From Candidatus Deferrimicrobiaceae bacterium (GTDB lineage Bacteria; Desulfobacterota; Deferrimicrobia; Deferrimicrobiales; Deferrimicrobiaceae), in the NCBI GenBank assembly GCA_963725055.1, contig CAVRXE010000004.1:455808-519807 (forward strand): a DNA stretch of 64,000 nt, in the 5' to 3' direction. The notes below the pieces were generated by a model. That model had not been told where the DNA came from. It ran no database searches and worked only from the letters and a program-made list of their open reading frames with translations. The translations under genes were made by a program, and so were the position numbers. Below, piece by piece: positions 9,411-18,797 of this stretch. Every line of letters begins with the position of its first letter. Positions within the stretch are counted from its first letter, which is position 1.

Positions 9411-10035
9411 AATACTGGTCGCGGATGATCATGAAGTCGTACGGAAAGGATTGGTGAAGGTACTTGCGGAGATCCTCCAGCCCATCAAGGTCGACGAGGT
9501 GAACAACGGACAGGAAGTCTTGAGCAAGGTCTTGAAGGGTGAATACGACCTGGTCGTGCTGGACATCAAGATGCCCGGGAAGAGCGGATTGGACGTATTG
9601 AAGGAGATCAAACAGCACAAGCCGCAGCTGCCCGTCCTGATCCTCAGCATGCACCCGGAGGAACAGTTTGCGATACGTGCCATGCGCGCAGGCGCCTCCG
9701 GGTACCTCACTAAGGAATGCGCGGGTGACGAGCTGGTCCTTGCGGTCCGGAAAGCGCTGAAAGGCGAGAGATACATCAGCAACGCGCTCGCCGAGATCCT
9801 GGCGGGTGAGTTAACCATCGACTCGGGAAAACCCCTCCACGAGATTCTGTCGGACCGCGAATACCAGGTGATGCTCTTGATCGCCTCCGGCAAACCCGTC
9901 GGTGCGATCGCCAAGGAGTTGCGCCTGAGCGTGAAGACAGTCAGCAGCTACCGGGCAAACATCCTGCTGAAGACGAGGATGAAAAACAACGCGGAAATAA
10001 CCCATTACGCCATCCAGAACAAGCTGGTGGATTGA
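9403..10035 (+). CDS. NarL/FixJ-family response regulator (receiver + LuxR-type HTH)
   Basis: MLRILVADDH..DLVVLDIKMPG receiver domain; C-terminal LSDREYQVMLLIASGKPVGAIAKELRLSVKTVSSYR HTH. The ATG overlaps the kinase stop by 8 nt. Confidence 0.9.
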   Translation: MLRILVADDHEVVRKGLVKVLAEILQPIKVDEVNNGQEVLSKVLKGEYDLVVLDIKMPGKSGLDVLKEIKQHKPQLPVLILSMHPEEQFAIRAMRAGASGYLTKECAGDELVLAVRKALKGERYISNALAEILAGELTIDSGKPLHEILSDREYQVMLLIASGKPVGAIAKELRLSVKTVSSYRANILLKTRMKNNAEITHYAIQNKLVD

Positions 10036-10135
10036 TCCGAACCCTCCGGCCCCCATCCTGCCGTAGGACAAACACCTAGTCGAAATCAGGACAAACGGCG
10101 AGGGATGTTTCGGACAGTTCCCGATACCGTCCCGC
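10023..10135 (+). repeat. Repeat family copy A (long form): TAG-GACAAAC element
   Basis: Shares the 30-nt GCTGGTGGATTGATCCGAACCCTCCGGCCC with copy D. It then carries TAGGACAAACACC...CAGGACAAAC...TTTCGGACAG...CCGATACCG. The first 13 nt are the last codons of the response-regulator gene. Confidence 0.8.
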
Positions 10136-10231
10136 ATGCTTTCCGGGAGATCCTATATACACGATGATTTCCTCGCCCCGACGGGCTGGATGGTGCCGGC
10201 CCAACCCTTGCCGGAGCGGAGAGGAGGGAGG

Positions 10232-10570
10232 ATGACCAACCGATCCTCGCCTACCGTACTTCCCCCGGCGCCTGTCGATCTGATCGCTGTCGCCGTCGGC
10301 GGTTGCGAGGTGCTTCTGGCATGGACCGAATGCCAGGCCGGCGGACTCGAGTTCCGCATCGAGCGAGCAGACTGTCACAGCCCTTGCACGCAATTTGTAG
10401 AGATCGGCAAGGTGGGGCCGCATGTCGCGGCCTTCTGCGACGGGTCCGTCGATCCTTGCACGACCTACCACTACCGGGTTCGTGCATGGAACACCTCCGG
10501 CGGCTCGTCGCCCTCCAATGTGGCGGAGGTGACGACGCCGAAGGTCGAGAAGGAACTGCCGTCCGATTAG
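10232..10570 (+). CDS. Stand-alone fibronectin type III domain protein
   Basis: PPAPVDL..LLAWTE...YHYRVRAWNTSGGSSPSN is a typical FN3 strand pattern. The ATG at 10232 is preceded by GGAGGGAGG. I see no obvious signal peptide. Confidence 0.6.
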   Translation: MTNRSSPTVLPPAPVDLIAVAVGGCEVLLAWTECQAGGLEFRIERADCHSPCTQFVEIGKVGPHVAAFCDGSVDPCTTYHYRVRAWNTSGGSSPSNVAEVTTPKVEKELPSD

Positions 10571-10661
10571 GACAAACACCGTGGCCGGAATCAGACAAAC
10601 GGCGGCTCGCGTTTCGGACAGATGCCGATACCGAAGGCCGCCGGTAAGGATCAGCATGAAG
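10568..10661 (+). repeat. Repeat family copy B (short form)
   Basis: TAGGACAAACACCGTGGCCGGAATCAGACAAACGGCGGCTCGCGTTTCGGACAGATGCCGATACCGAAGGCCGCCGG. Its TAG is the stop codon of the FN3 gene. Confidence 0.8.
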
Positions 10662-10711
10662 TTGCCTGCGTTGGATGAACGTAACCGGCTCACAAAAGGA
10701 GGTGACGAAAA

Positions 10712-10861
10712 ATGCTCTGGACCGTAGCCGTCATTTTGCTTGTCCTCTGGGCGCTGGGCTTGGTCACCTCGTACACGATGGGAGGATTCATTCACATTCT
10801 CCTGGTCATCGCGATCGTGGTGGTGCTGATCAATGTCATTCAGGGACGAAAGGTCCTGTAG
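10712..10861 (+). CDS. Lmo0937-family small membrane protein (49 aa; below the ORF-track cutoff)
   Basis: My own translation is MLWTVAVILLVLWALGLVTSYTMGGFIHILLVIAIVVVLINVIQGRKVL. AAGGAGGTG lies 7 nt upstream. The sequence matches the family pattern as I remember it (MLW..ILLVLW.LG..T.YT.GGFIH.LLVIA). Confidence 0.75.
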   Translation: MLWTVAVILLVLWALGLVTSYTMGGFIHILLVIAIVVVLINVIQGRKVL

Positions 10862-10912
10862 CGTCCCTGGAATGCTTCTCCGTGGCAGGTTCCTGGGCAG
10901 GAAGGAGACGAG

Positions 10913-11131
10913 ATGAGCGGAATCAGGATATTGGCAATCGTGCTGATCGTGGCCGGCCTCCTGGGGGTGATGTACGGGAAGTTCAGCTACACCAAGGAGA
11001 CCCACGACGCCAAGGTGGGCTCGCTCGAGCTGTCGTTCAAGGAAAAGCAGACGGTCAACGTGCCTGCCTGGGCAGGCGTGGCGGCGATCGCGGCCGGCGC
11101 GGGGATGCTTCTTATGCGCACGAAGAACTAA
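10913..11131 (+). CDS. Small two-TM membrane protein, function unknown
   Basis: 72-aa ORF with hydrophobic N- and C-terminal segments and a GGAAGGAG RBS. A GC-rich hairpin follows the stop. Confidence 0.5.
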   Translation: MSGIRILAIVLIVAGLLGVMYGKFSYTKETHDAKVGSLELSFKEKQTVNVPAWAGVAAIAAGAGMLLMRTKN

Positions 11132-17377: not shown

Positions 17378-17689
17378 ACCGATCGGAAAAATCCGGAACA
17401 ATACAAAAACTATACAAACGGGATGACATTAGAAGTTTTATTGGGCGAAAAAAAGACAATCAACACTGCTATTTGGGATGTTCTCATGCCACGAAACTGA
17501 ACTTGATCGTGAGTCAAGCGGCCAGGGGAAAATGTTTCGAGATCAATTCGTTACAGGAGCGGCGACTTTATTGCTAGTCAAGTCGCCTTACCTGTCCAGT
17601 TTTTGTATAGTAGGCACCCCGAAACACCCAAAACAGGACAAACGTCAGAAAATTGACGCTTCGTAAGTAGTAAATAACACAAAAGATTA

Positions 17690-17717
17690 GGGGTCACCGG
17701 GTGTTCCCGGTGACCCC
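17690..17717. repeat. Perfect 11-bp-stem hairpin immediately upstream of the tRNA fragment
   Basis: GGGGTCACCGG-GTGTTC-CCGGTGACCCC. Confidence 0.6.
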
Positions 17718-17730
17718 ATTTCCCCGGCTT

Positions 17731-17808
17731 CGGATCAAGCGGCCGGGGGTTCGAATCCCTCAGGGCACGCCAACAAATCCAGTCCGGGCGTTCTTTCTGG
17801 AGTGCCCA
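17731..17808 (+). pseudogene. 3' fragment of a tRNA-Arg-like gene plus a diverged copy of its terminator (putative distal att remnant)
   Basis: GATCAAGCGGCCGGGGGTTCGAATCCCTCAGGGCACGCCA-ACAAATCC..CCGGGCGTTCTTTCTGGAGTGCCC aligns at about 80% with 14901-14977 (anticodon-stem 3' strand through CCA and the hairpin). No 5' half of a tRNA is present. Confidence 0.7.
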
Positions 17809-18077
17809 TCTATCTGATCAACAATCCAATGTTTTTATGCGTGTATCCCTTCCGGGAAGTGGACAGGAAATGACAGAGTCCCCGTATGGAGAGGGATTTG
17901 CTCATTCGGATGTTCCTCCCGCGACAGCTTGCGTCGCTTGTCACTTCCGGAACGGGGACTTCTCGGAAAATGGAAACGACCAGGGAAGGGGGGAAATCTA
18001 ATAGGGGAAATTGTTTTCTGGCGAGCTCGTGCCATAAACCCGTATCGCTGTGATGGAACGAGAGGGGTAACTAAGCC

Positions 18078-18431
18078 ATGTTAAAGACAGGAACGGGAGA
18101 AACCAATGCTGTTCTGGACAACCACTTGGCAGCGGCGCAACGCGGTGATCTGGAGGGTGTACTAAGCGACTTTTCCGAGGACTCTGTCCTCTTCCTTCCT
18201 CAGGGGCCGGTTCGGGGGATGGCGGGGTTGCGTGAGTTCTACAAAGTGTTTCTGACCAAGCCCCCTTCGGGGTTCCCGAAGGCTTTCGAGCTCCTCCGCC
18301 GGGACGTGGATGGCGAGGTAGCATATATCGTTTGGAAAGCCGAGCCGGGAGTTAAGTTGGCAACCGACACCTTTTTAGTGCGCGACGGAAAAATCATGGT
18401 TCAGACGTTCGCGGCGTCCCTTGCCGCCTAA
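18078..18431 (+). CDS. SnoaL-like / NTF2-fold protein
   Basis: The 117-aa pattern ..HLAAAQRGDLEGVLSDFSEDSVLF.P.G...G...LREFY......DGEVAYIVW..........DTFLVRDGKI..QTF is typical of the SnoaL_2 fold. Confidence 0.7.
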   Translation: MLKTGTGETNAVLDNHLAAAQRGDLEGVLSDFSEDSVLFLPQGPVRGMAGLREFYKVFLTKPPSGFPKAFELLRRDVDGEVAYIVWKAEPGVKLATDTFLVRDGKIMVQTFAASLAA

Positions 18432-18640
18432 CCACAGGCTGAAGCTGACGGCTCGCCTGGGATGTATCGTGGACGCCCGCTGCTTAACCTAGGTATTACG
18501 CAGAGAAGTTAAAGAGAAAGCGTTTCGTCCCAGTAGTGCCCAGTTTCGTCCGGCATGGCGCGCCATCTTTTCAACCAGTTACGCTGGCCAGCCTTTTCCT
18601 TATTCCCCGAATTGTGAAGTAATTGTGTAGTTGACTCGGG

Positions 18641-18797
18641 GCTGGTGGATTGATCCGAACCCTCCGGCCCCTCCGGCGCCCCTCCCTGCTATAGGACAAA
18701 CACCGATCCGAAATTAGGACAAACAGCGGCTCGTATTTCGGACAGGTACCGATTCCGAAGGCTGGCGGACGGCATTACTGTTGCAGGTATCCGAGAG
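18641..18797 (+). repeat. Repeat family copy D (long form)
   Basis: GCTGGTGGATTGATCCGAACCCTCCGGCCC (identical to copy A), then ...TAGGACAAACACCGATCCGAAATTAGGACAAACAGCGGCTCGTATTTCGGACAGGTACCGATTCCGAAGGCTGG...ATCCGAG. Confidence 0.8.
18770..18785 (+). promoter_or_regulatory. Sigma54-like -24/-12 element
   Basis: CGGCAT-TACTG-TTGCA against consensus TGGCAC-N5-TTGCA, with correct GG/GC spacing. It lies 138 nt upstream of the ATG at 18923 and inside repeat copy D. The other copies do not carry it. Confidence 0.35.

Follow-up and report, generated by a model that had tools for sequence, protein, structure and literature searches.

The 64,000-nucleotide stretch analyzed here (the window, from contig CAVRXE010000004.1 of the Candidatus Deferrimicrobiaceae assembly GCA_963725055.1) carries four copies, A to D, of a short element in which GACA motifs recur every 23 nt. 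When these copies are compared with their relatives in other genomes, a function in transcription initiation is suggested: each copy is probably a complete σ70 promoter cassette that depends on an activator, carries tandem sites for its regulator and works as DNA. Where transcription starts, which protein binds and what signal acts are inferences; the candidate activator, a NarL-type response regulator encoded next to copy A, is tied to the cassette by genetic linkage.

All four copies are present, on the + strand, where a sequence-only reading of the window had placed them, and the true extent of each is approximately −6 to +88, counted from the G of its first GACAAAC (Table 1). The motif GACAAACRSC occurs eight times in the window, always on the + strand and as four pairs spaced 23 nt apart (10067/10090, 10571/10594, 12679/12702 and 18695/18718), against 0.52 expected matches, and eight or more were found in 0 of 100 shuffles. 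Likewise, TTCGGACAGNNNCCGATWCCG has four matches without mismatch (10109, 10613, 12721 and 18737) where 0.36 would be expected. The 23-nt phase of the GACA cores, also claimed in that reading, is exact in all four window copies and in all 86 copies of the family alignment described below. Its statement that the TAG of two copies doubles as a stop codon is borne out, as this TAG ends ORF (open reading frame) 10136..10570 at copy B and ORF 11602..12678 at copy C, and so is the identity upstream of copies A and D, where the 31 bases of GCTGGTGGATTGATCCGAACCCTCCGGCCCC are shared; in A they cover the last codons of the regulator gene and continue into its 3′ flank. A partial match that had been listed at 17625-17645 is no member of the family, as a profile search at E ≤ 1 returned nothing there. 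Searches with Rfam (release 15) models left every copy unmatched, both window-wide at the gathering score and over 9900-19000 at a permissive E ≤ 10.

Scanning one genome per species from 185,579 species with the pattern GACAAAC-N16-18-ACAAAC-N13-15-CGGACAG yielded 79 loci (L numbers below). Eleven pattern matches were set aside as chance matches or as a copy cut by the end of a locus, and the 86-copy set comprises the full-element copies, those of the window and of L001 included. L001, reached through an exact look-up of the window BON protein, is a contig of a close strain, 99% identical over 13 kb, with the same four copies as the window. A nucleotide profile built from the 86 copies raised the number by 32, all in those loci; in the window it found no additional copy. 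The family is hosted by 27 metagenome-assembled genomes (MAGs), whose labels are, with few exceptions, Candidatus Deferrimicrobium, Deferrimicrobiaceae or ‘Deltaproteobacteria CSP1-8’, and one MAG holds at least 16 copies spread over many contigs. Candidatus Deferrimicrobium is a member of Deferrimicrobiota, a candidate phylum that also goes by the name MBNT15 (PMC9386147). Some cassette-bearing MAGs carry labels of other phyla: Bacteroidota (L002, L045), Limnocylindria (L029, L046, L051, L064), Actinomycetota (L023, L039) and Woeseiaceae (L038, L049). These are probably mis-binned contigs or bin contamination, because the contigs concerned hold the same Deferrimicrobium-type genes.

The 86 copies align without gaps, and their conservation is block-wise, with variable spacers between the blocks, from −6 to +88, where family-wide conservation stops. 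Three 23-bp units (TnnGACAnAnnnCG) are followed by GCCGATACC and then by a −10-like T-A-n-n-n-T at +81..+86, the family consensus being CCATAG GACAAACACCG..CCGAgAAT (c/t)(a/g) GACAAACaGCGAcTCGCGTT TCGGACAGAwGCCGATACCgaaGGc.GGCGGgcAGGATTAccGTg. The units start at −3, +20 and +43; each begins T-n-(G/A)-G-A-C-A, and all three share the pattern T-n-n-G-A-C-A-n-A-n-n-n-C-G. The TAG is part of a conserved CCATAG, in which its T, A and G are kept in 83, 84 and 84 copies, respectively. Positions that the search pattern left free to vary are in many cases still kept in 80-86 of the 86 copies. Three copies lack exactly one 23-bp unit (L011 7933-7999, L050 3594-3662 and L047 3698-3768), which is consistent with recombination between tandem units.

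It is the 3′ part of the block that resembles a core promoter. The −10-like columns are T81 (68/86), A82 (81/86) and T86 (82/86), a pattern that corresponds to a σ70 −10 signature, whose most important positions are the second and the sixth. Seven to eight nucleotides further on, A is preferred at +93 (58/86) and +94 (53/86), at the distance expected of a start site. The corresponding −35 position (58-63) reads TACCGA; GCCGATACC is located there and is unlike TTGACA. Unit 3 (+43..+65) overlaps this position, so that relative to the predicted start a proximal site would take the place of TTGACA upstream of the conserved −10-like element. The organism itself uses canonical −35 and −10 elements, as judged from the promoter of the kinase-regulator operon (Table 1) and that of the tRNA-Arg gene (TTGACG-17-TAAGAT). 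A variant that we call A-type has other sequence from +62 on, yet keeps.A...T at +82..+87; its 3′ part is common to L040, L057, L039, L018, L048, L008, L074 and L046, and A-type copies always lie 3′ of the regulator gene. Copy A is of this type, and its 3′ part, GTCCCGCATGCTTTCCGGGAG, is unlike that of the other window copies.

The placement of the cassettes points the same way. A same-strand ORF starts at +86..+450, within ~360 nt of the block, in 83 of the 86 copies; most of these starts fall at +105..+200, that is 17-112 nt past the block end, and most have a Shine-Dalgarno match. At 49 of the 86 an upstream ORF in the same direction ends within ~80 nt of the cassette or reaches as far as 30 nt into it, and in only 13 of the 86 copies does the TAG serve as a stop codon. 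Twelve copies have a divergent partner cassette upstream, and because the spacing goes down to ~10 nt there is no room for a separate upstream promoter. The upstream flanks differ among genomic contexts. Because the cassette is the sole sequence common to all loci, the transcription start signal of the unrelated downstream genes must be inside it. The sequence-only reading had proposed to test an association with stop or start codons against random scatter; the copies are spread genome-wide, but their strict orientation and a position mostly near start codons favor a regulon.

More than 15 unrelated protein clusters are preceded by the cassette. The commonest is a family of 81-99-aa proteins of unknown function (14 copies), followed by DUF5670 (10), BON and CsbD (8 each) and a Thivi_2564-like 63-aa membrane protein (6); others are Usp, an extracytoplasmic function (ECF) sigma factor, DUF302, LTXXQ, MlaE, DUF6627 and PAS kinases. 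The gene families behind window copies A-C recur behind cassettes in other MAGs, and the downstream set is of the type seen in general or envelope stress regulons. The 81-99-aa family, represented in the window by 12828-13073, has no Pfam or NCBIfam match and occurs also in L003, L005, L009, L021, L027, L044, L051, L062, L064, L079 and others, with several paralogues per genome and with truncated 5′ ends that were copied along with the promoter.

A two-component system is genetically linked to these sites. The response regulator has Response_reg and GerE domains; its closest solved structures, VraR, NarL, DevR and DesR, are about equally similar, and an exact-protein look-up of the regulator gave no record. 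The best NCBIfam matches of the kinase are MctS/UhpB/NarQ-like, all under the cut-offs. Orthologues of the regulator (78-90% identity) adjoin cassettes in L039, L048, L057, L040, L018, L074, L053 and L046, so that in eight other loci the gene is directly upstream of an A-type cassette. The kinase orthologue (75-88% identity) is full length in the first seven of these, while in L046 the last 36 kinase residues alone fall within the locus. Paralogous kinases with the same N-terminal sensor region lie behind cassettes in L030, L044 and L071. Autoregulation of the window kinase-regulator operon through the cassette is ruled out, as the operon has its own σ70 promoter and no cassette.

We therefore suggest the following mechanism on the basis of linkage and motif placement. 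The phosphorylated NarL-type regulator would bind the three units cooperatively, and with a start near +93 the centers of the units would fall at approximately −86, −63 and −40. Of the three, the unit closest to the −10 element would substitute for the missing −35 contact and recruit σ70 RNA polymerase, and transcription would begin ~7 nt after the −10 element; BvgA and DevR/DosR activate their promoters in this manner. In this way the cassette would drive a lineage-specific stress-type regulon of CsbD, BON, DUF5670, Usp, ECF sigma, DUF302, LTXXQ, MlaE and small unknown proteins. The sequence-only reading had offered a phased operator array for the adjacent regulator as one of its alternatives, and this is the one that the evidence favors, with two corrections: the array is not a local one, since copies occur in 27 MAGs and number at least 16 in one of them, and what is repeated is a whole promoter cassette with its own −10-like element.

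Several observations weigh against this promoter reading. Twenty of the conserved positions were fixed by the search pattern, so the apparent invariance of the boxes is inflated, and copies found by the profile only do vary at these positions. The period, though fixed and close to the known 21-22 bp, is 23 bp, which would place successive sites off one helical face, and only units 1 and 3 show partial inverted half-sites (TAGGAC-N8-GTCCGA and TCGG-N13-CCGA, respectively), unit 2 being without a right half. At least six MAGs have an ECF sigma gene behind a cassette, which means that the core promoter could be read by a different sigma factor, and GCCGATAC matches seven of the eight positions of the sigma-28 −10 consensus, GCCGATAA. 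Finally, a subset of copies has inverted repeats (GGATTAC..GTAATCC, CGTGT-TGGAA-ACACG; e.g. 12756-12776) that overlap the proposed −10 element and start at +77..+97. These show weak covariation, the observed values being reached in 7/500 and 5/500 shuffles, and if they are RNA hairpins the transcription start would have to be further upstream. For the hairpin +77..+83/+91..+97, 56% of cells are paired against 54% in shuffles, and a control slid by −2 scores equally; the repeat may represent either an RNA hairpin or an additional operator.

The strongest competitor holds that an alternative sigma factor reads the core promoter, either the ECF sigma factor of the regulon, which would regulate itself, or a group-3 sigma factor using GCCGATAC as its −10 element with a start near +67. 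The GACA boxes would then be accessory, and the kinase-regulator pair one more member of the regulon or an upstream input. ECF sigma factors usually drive their own promoters, and an orthologous ECF sigma gene is directly behind a cassette in L030, L038, L044, L079, L074 and L040; CsbD, BON and Usp genes are moreover typical of sigma-driven general stress regulons in other phyla. GCCGATAC, at +53..+60, is among the most conserved blocks, and a start near +67 would place the subset hairpins at +77..+97 inside the transcript. Nevertheless, we regard this explanation as unlikely, and the known promoter architectures do not fit fully. An ECF promoter has AAC at −35 and CGT at −10, 16-17 nt apart, but no AAC-N16-17-CGT is found anywhere in the cassette consensus, and C84 (61/86) and G85 (52/86) are weaker than A82 (81) and T86 (82), the reverse of an ECF −10. 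A sigma-28 promoter has TAAA ~15 nt upstream of its −10 and serves flagellar or chemotaxis genes, but nothing TAAA-like occurs 15 nt upstream of GCCGATAC, where positions 34-37 read ACTC, and among the genes downstream are CsbD, BON, DUF5670 and Usp, none of them flagellar. Pyrimidines occupy +67 and +68, the 95 conserved base pairs go well beyond what a sigma factor needs, and the 64-kb window has no such sigma gene, whereas the kinase-regulator pair adjoins copies. Comparison by eye of the column counts with the sigma-54, ECF, sigma-B, sigma-H and sigma-28 consensuses gave none that fits fully. Sigma-54 promoters have GG and GC at −24/−12 with fixed spacing; TGGC does occur at +68..+71, but the GC position reads T81 A82, and no NtrC-type activator is nearby.

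Another possibility is that the transcribed cassette works as RNA. It would then be a 5′ leader or an intercistronic segment without structure, and an RNA-binding protein that recognizes its GACA(A/G)A motifs would control how the downstream gene is translated or how stable its message is. The strict orientation to the downstream gene would suit such a role, as would the exact start of copies B and C at a co-directional stop codon, the GGA among the repeated short motifs, the weak covariation of the +77..+97 hairpin and the long conserved leader of the largest subfamily, which runs past +88 and precedes unrelated genes. The core, however, has neither a consensus secondary structure nor covariation. 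RNAalifold on 83-85 copies gave no consensus structure (−0.68 kcal/mol for the + strand and −0.29 for the −), the top pairs by mutual information over all column pairs are not Watson-Crick, and the leader of the largest subfamily (+40..+135) also lacks a consensus (−0.94 kcal/mol). A helix of GGGCAGG (+72..+78) with CCTGCnC (~+113), picked by eye, is inconsistent in register. Nor do these results support the structured 3′ untranslated region or small RNA that the sequence-only reading had entertained, or a structured cis-regulatory RNA such as a riboswitch, since no consensus fold appears on either strand and neither the hairpin nor its flanking stem covaries. Of the hairpin that it took to be conserved, the left arm alone is so; the right arm varies without compensation, and 81.5% of cells are paired against 81.9% in shuffles, with a covariation score for hairpin plus flanking stem of 0.093 against 0.103. 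Nor does its compensatory change survive in the family, where columns +30 and +68 are independent (A/C 23, A/T 20, G/T 15, G/C 14). A CsrA-type reading of the GGA motifs was rejected, as position +22 in the second box is A in 46 copies and G in 40, so that about half lack GGA there. No conserved promoter lies upstream of the cassette and the flanks differ by context, with back-to-back divergent pairs only ~10-30 nt apart; a T-A-n-n-n-T after which the family as a whole is no longer conserved is what one would expect of a promoter. We consider an RNA function improbable.

There is also a slim chance that the cassette is more than a promoter of a familiar sort, namely the assembly site of a larger wrapped nucleoprotein complex, a dual DNA/RNA signal, or a plug-in module that time and again copied itself along with the 3′ end of its own regulator gene and so expanded the regulon. 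The first two of these are suggested by the three near-invariant units, which are out of helical register, together with ~40 further conserved positions. If either the signal-or-complex reading or the plug-in module were true, this would be a promoter organization or mode of spread not described for NarL-type systems.

The comparison of copies bears on the last alternative, a small non-autonomous mobile or repetitive extragenic palindromic (REP)-like repeat with an outward-facing promoter that transposes with a preference for sites near TAG. The number of differences per 98 positions is 24.2 within one MAG and 24.2 between MAGs, and 20.6 between MAGs for copies in front of one protein family. 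This marks the copies as old and as inherited vertically, with purifying selection acting block by block. Mobility of this kind, which the sequence-only reading had also considered, is highly improbable: the family is multi-copy and intergenic with sharp boundaries, some copies lack exactly one 23-bp unit, attached regulator 3′ ends show copying to new places, and promoter-carrying repeats and reused promoters are documented (PMC3575422), but the 86 copies have no terminal inverted repeat, no palindromic hairpin and no inverted GACAAAC within +50..+260, no transposase is associated with them, conservation is not uniform, the same gene families carry the cassette across many genomes, a sign of vertical inheritance, and the TAG belongs to the CCATAG motif rather than to a target.

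How the promoter cassette spread can be read from its flanks. Remnants of the regulator 3′ end, from a few codons up to ~60, are found upstream of ~20 of the 86 copies, copy D among them, and adjoin cassettes that drive other genes (L048, L064, L073, L070, L072, L076, L044, L005, L077). Because such fragments sit upstream of other cassettes, promoter duplication must repeatedly have begun from the copy behind the regulator. Several unrelated genes are preceded by one and the same long leader, in some cases along with the initial codons of the 81-aa gene. The regulon thus grew by segmental duplication of the promoter, often with the regulator 3′ end or a 5′ leader.

On the + strand of the window the order is kinase, regulator, copy A, 112-aa gene, copy B, DUF5670, 72-aa, BON and 358-aa genes, copy C, 81-aa and 462-aa genes, and then tRNA-Arg, a 3.6-kb variable island, copy D and the gene of a secreted 185-aa protein. 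The 358-aa amidinotransferase-fold gene (11602..12678) sits among the genes of copies A-C without a cassette of its own.

Table 1. Positions of the cassette copies and associated features in the 64-kb window.
Feature	Position	Strand	Details
Promoter of kinase-regulator operon	7998..8025	+	near-consensus σ70, TTGGCA-16-TATAAT, 11/12 matches
Sensor histidine kinase	8076..9410	+	PAS + HisKA_3 + HATPase_c (Pfam)
NarL/LuxR (GerE)-type response regulator	9403..10035	+	Pfam Response_reg + GerE; proposed cassette-binding activator
Copy A (A-type)	10061..10159	+	GACAAAC at 10067, 10090; GACAG at 10113; CCGATACC at 10121; 5′ of 112-aa gene (10232-10570)
Copy A, −10-like candidates	10149-10154 or 10154-10159	+	GATCCT or TATATA; in A-type 3′ part
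Genes behind copies A-C	10232..14442	+	112-aa FN3-like, DUF5670, 72-aa transmembrane, BON, 81-aa, 462-aa (Pfam, NCBIfam)
Copy B	10565..10659	+	boxes 10571, 10594, 10617; GCCGATACC 10624-10632; −10-like CAGCAT 10652-10657; TAG (10568-10570) also stop codon of 112-aa gene; 5′ of DUF5670 (10712-10861), 72-aa membrane protein (10913-11131) and BON protein (11189-11503)
Copy C	12673..12767	+	boxes 12679, 12702, 12725; GCCGATACC 12732-12740; −10-like TACCAT 12760-12765; TAG (12676-12678) also stop codon of 358-aa gene; 5′ of 81-aa gene (12828-13073) and 462-aa hydrolase-like gene (13054-14442)
Regulator-gene remnant	18641..18671	+	last codons + 3′ flank, identical to 10023-10053; duplicated along with the cassette
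Copy D	18689..18783	+	boxes 18695, 18718, 18741; ACCGATTCC 18748-18756; −10-like TACTGT 18776-18781; 5′ of secreted 185-aa protein gene (18923-19480; Shine-Dalgarno AAGGAG at 18910)

Between copies C and D, the region 14864-18556 resembles a variable island that uses a tRNA gene as its integration site. The tRNA-Arg gene (14864-14940) is followed by a 3.6-kb segment that is not in L001, where copy D directly follows the tRNA and ~5.9 kb (DUF6448, Pyr_redox_2, CopD, AhpC) lie before the tRNA instead. Encoded in the segment are a Cache-domain ORF, DUF1330, a zinc alcohol dehydrogenase and a SnoaL-like ORF, and it also contains an AT-rich stretch (17400-17700), a strong hairpin (17690-17717) and a fragment resembling a tmRNA 3′ end (17723-17762). 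Elsewhere in the window, a hybrid sensor kinase (dCache, PAS, HisKA, HATPase, receiver) is encoded at 20325-23096, ~850 bp downstream of the copy-D gene; a 2489-aa ORF occupies 25220-32689 on the + strand, with long overlapping ORFs on both strands; and a Cobalamin riboswitch lies at 62356-62558 on the + strand (75.7 bits, E = 7e-17).

The cassette is a new regulon motif of a known kind and no new type of element. What it provides is a highly specific sequence signature for a whole stress-type regulon together with its likely master two-component system, in Candidatus Deferrimicrobiota (MBNT15/CSP1-8), an uncultured soil and sediment phylum whose regulation is so far unstudied. The signature can predict co-regulated genes, and several of these belong to families whose function is unknown: DUF5670, the 81-aa family, the 112-aa FN3-like protein and the Thivi_2564-like membrane protein of 63 aa. 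It is useful for annotation, and the cassette is a clear case of regulon expansion through promoter duplication.

When compared with known systems, the cassette shares with REP, miniature inverted-repeat transposable and Correia elements that it is short, multi-copy and intergenic and that some copies abut stop codons. It differs from them in having no terminal inverted repeats or hairpin, a fixed orientation to the gene start, block-wise conservation and within-genome copies that are no more alike than others. Another likeness is to the reused or ‘putative mobile’ promoters of Nijveen, Matus-Garcia and van Passel, highly similar promoter regions before non-homologous genes within and between genomes (PMC3575422). 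Here too one cassette, sometimes with a leader or the regulator 3′ end, stands before more than 15 unrelated families, but the copies are old, spacer-diverged, confined to one lineage and without a link to insertion sequences, and they look like a stable regulon rather than recent capture.

As for the regulator, the DevR/DosR dormancy regulon of Mycobacterium tuberculosis is rich in Usp and small stress proteins, which are also downstream of the cassette here. The sensor domains of DosS and DosT are GAF domains, whereas that of the window kinase is PAS. Both systems pair a NarL-family regulator with a HisKA_3-type kinase, and both have tandem boxes, here with the core GGAC and predicted centers at approximately −40, −63 and −86. 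DevR requires tandem Dev boxes, a hallmark of its promoters, for example at −42.5 and −63.5, with a G and a C essential in each half-site (PMC3177182), and DosR touches sigma region 4 and the alpha subunit (PMC13486717). However, Dev boxes are 18-20-bp palindromes 21 bp apart, whereas the units here are mainly direct repeats 23 bp apart, and the window regulator, being about equally similar to VraR, NarL, DevR and DesR, is no DevR orthologue. The arrangement of sites also resembles that at the Bordetella promoters activated by BvgA, likewise of the NarL family. Its dimers bind head-to-head at a fixed period of 22 bp, about two helical turns; Pfha has three of them and Pptx six, the site nearest the promoter abuts the −35, and the core promoter is weak without the activator (PMC7250471). 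As in that system, a NarL-type regulator would here occupy three fixed-period sites that reach a −35 position without a TTGACA-like element. The period is nevertheless 23 bp here and not 22, the box is T(A/C)GGACA and not the TTTCCTA heptad, and the kinase is of the PAS-HisKA_3 type and not BvgS. BvgA relies on one strong site plus weak ones, whereas all three boxes of the cassette are strongly conserved. The cassette thus departs from its NarL-type precedents in the 23-bp period, in units that are mainly direct repeats, and in how unusually well GCCGATACC and each of the three units are conserved.

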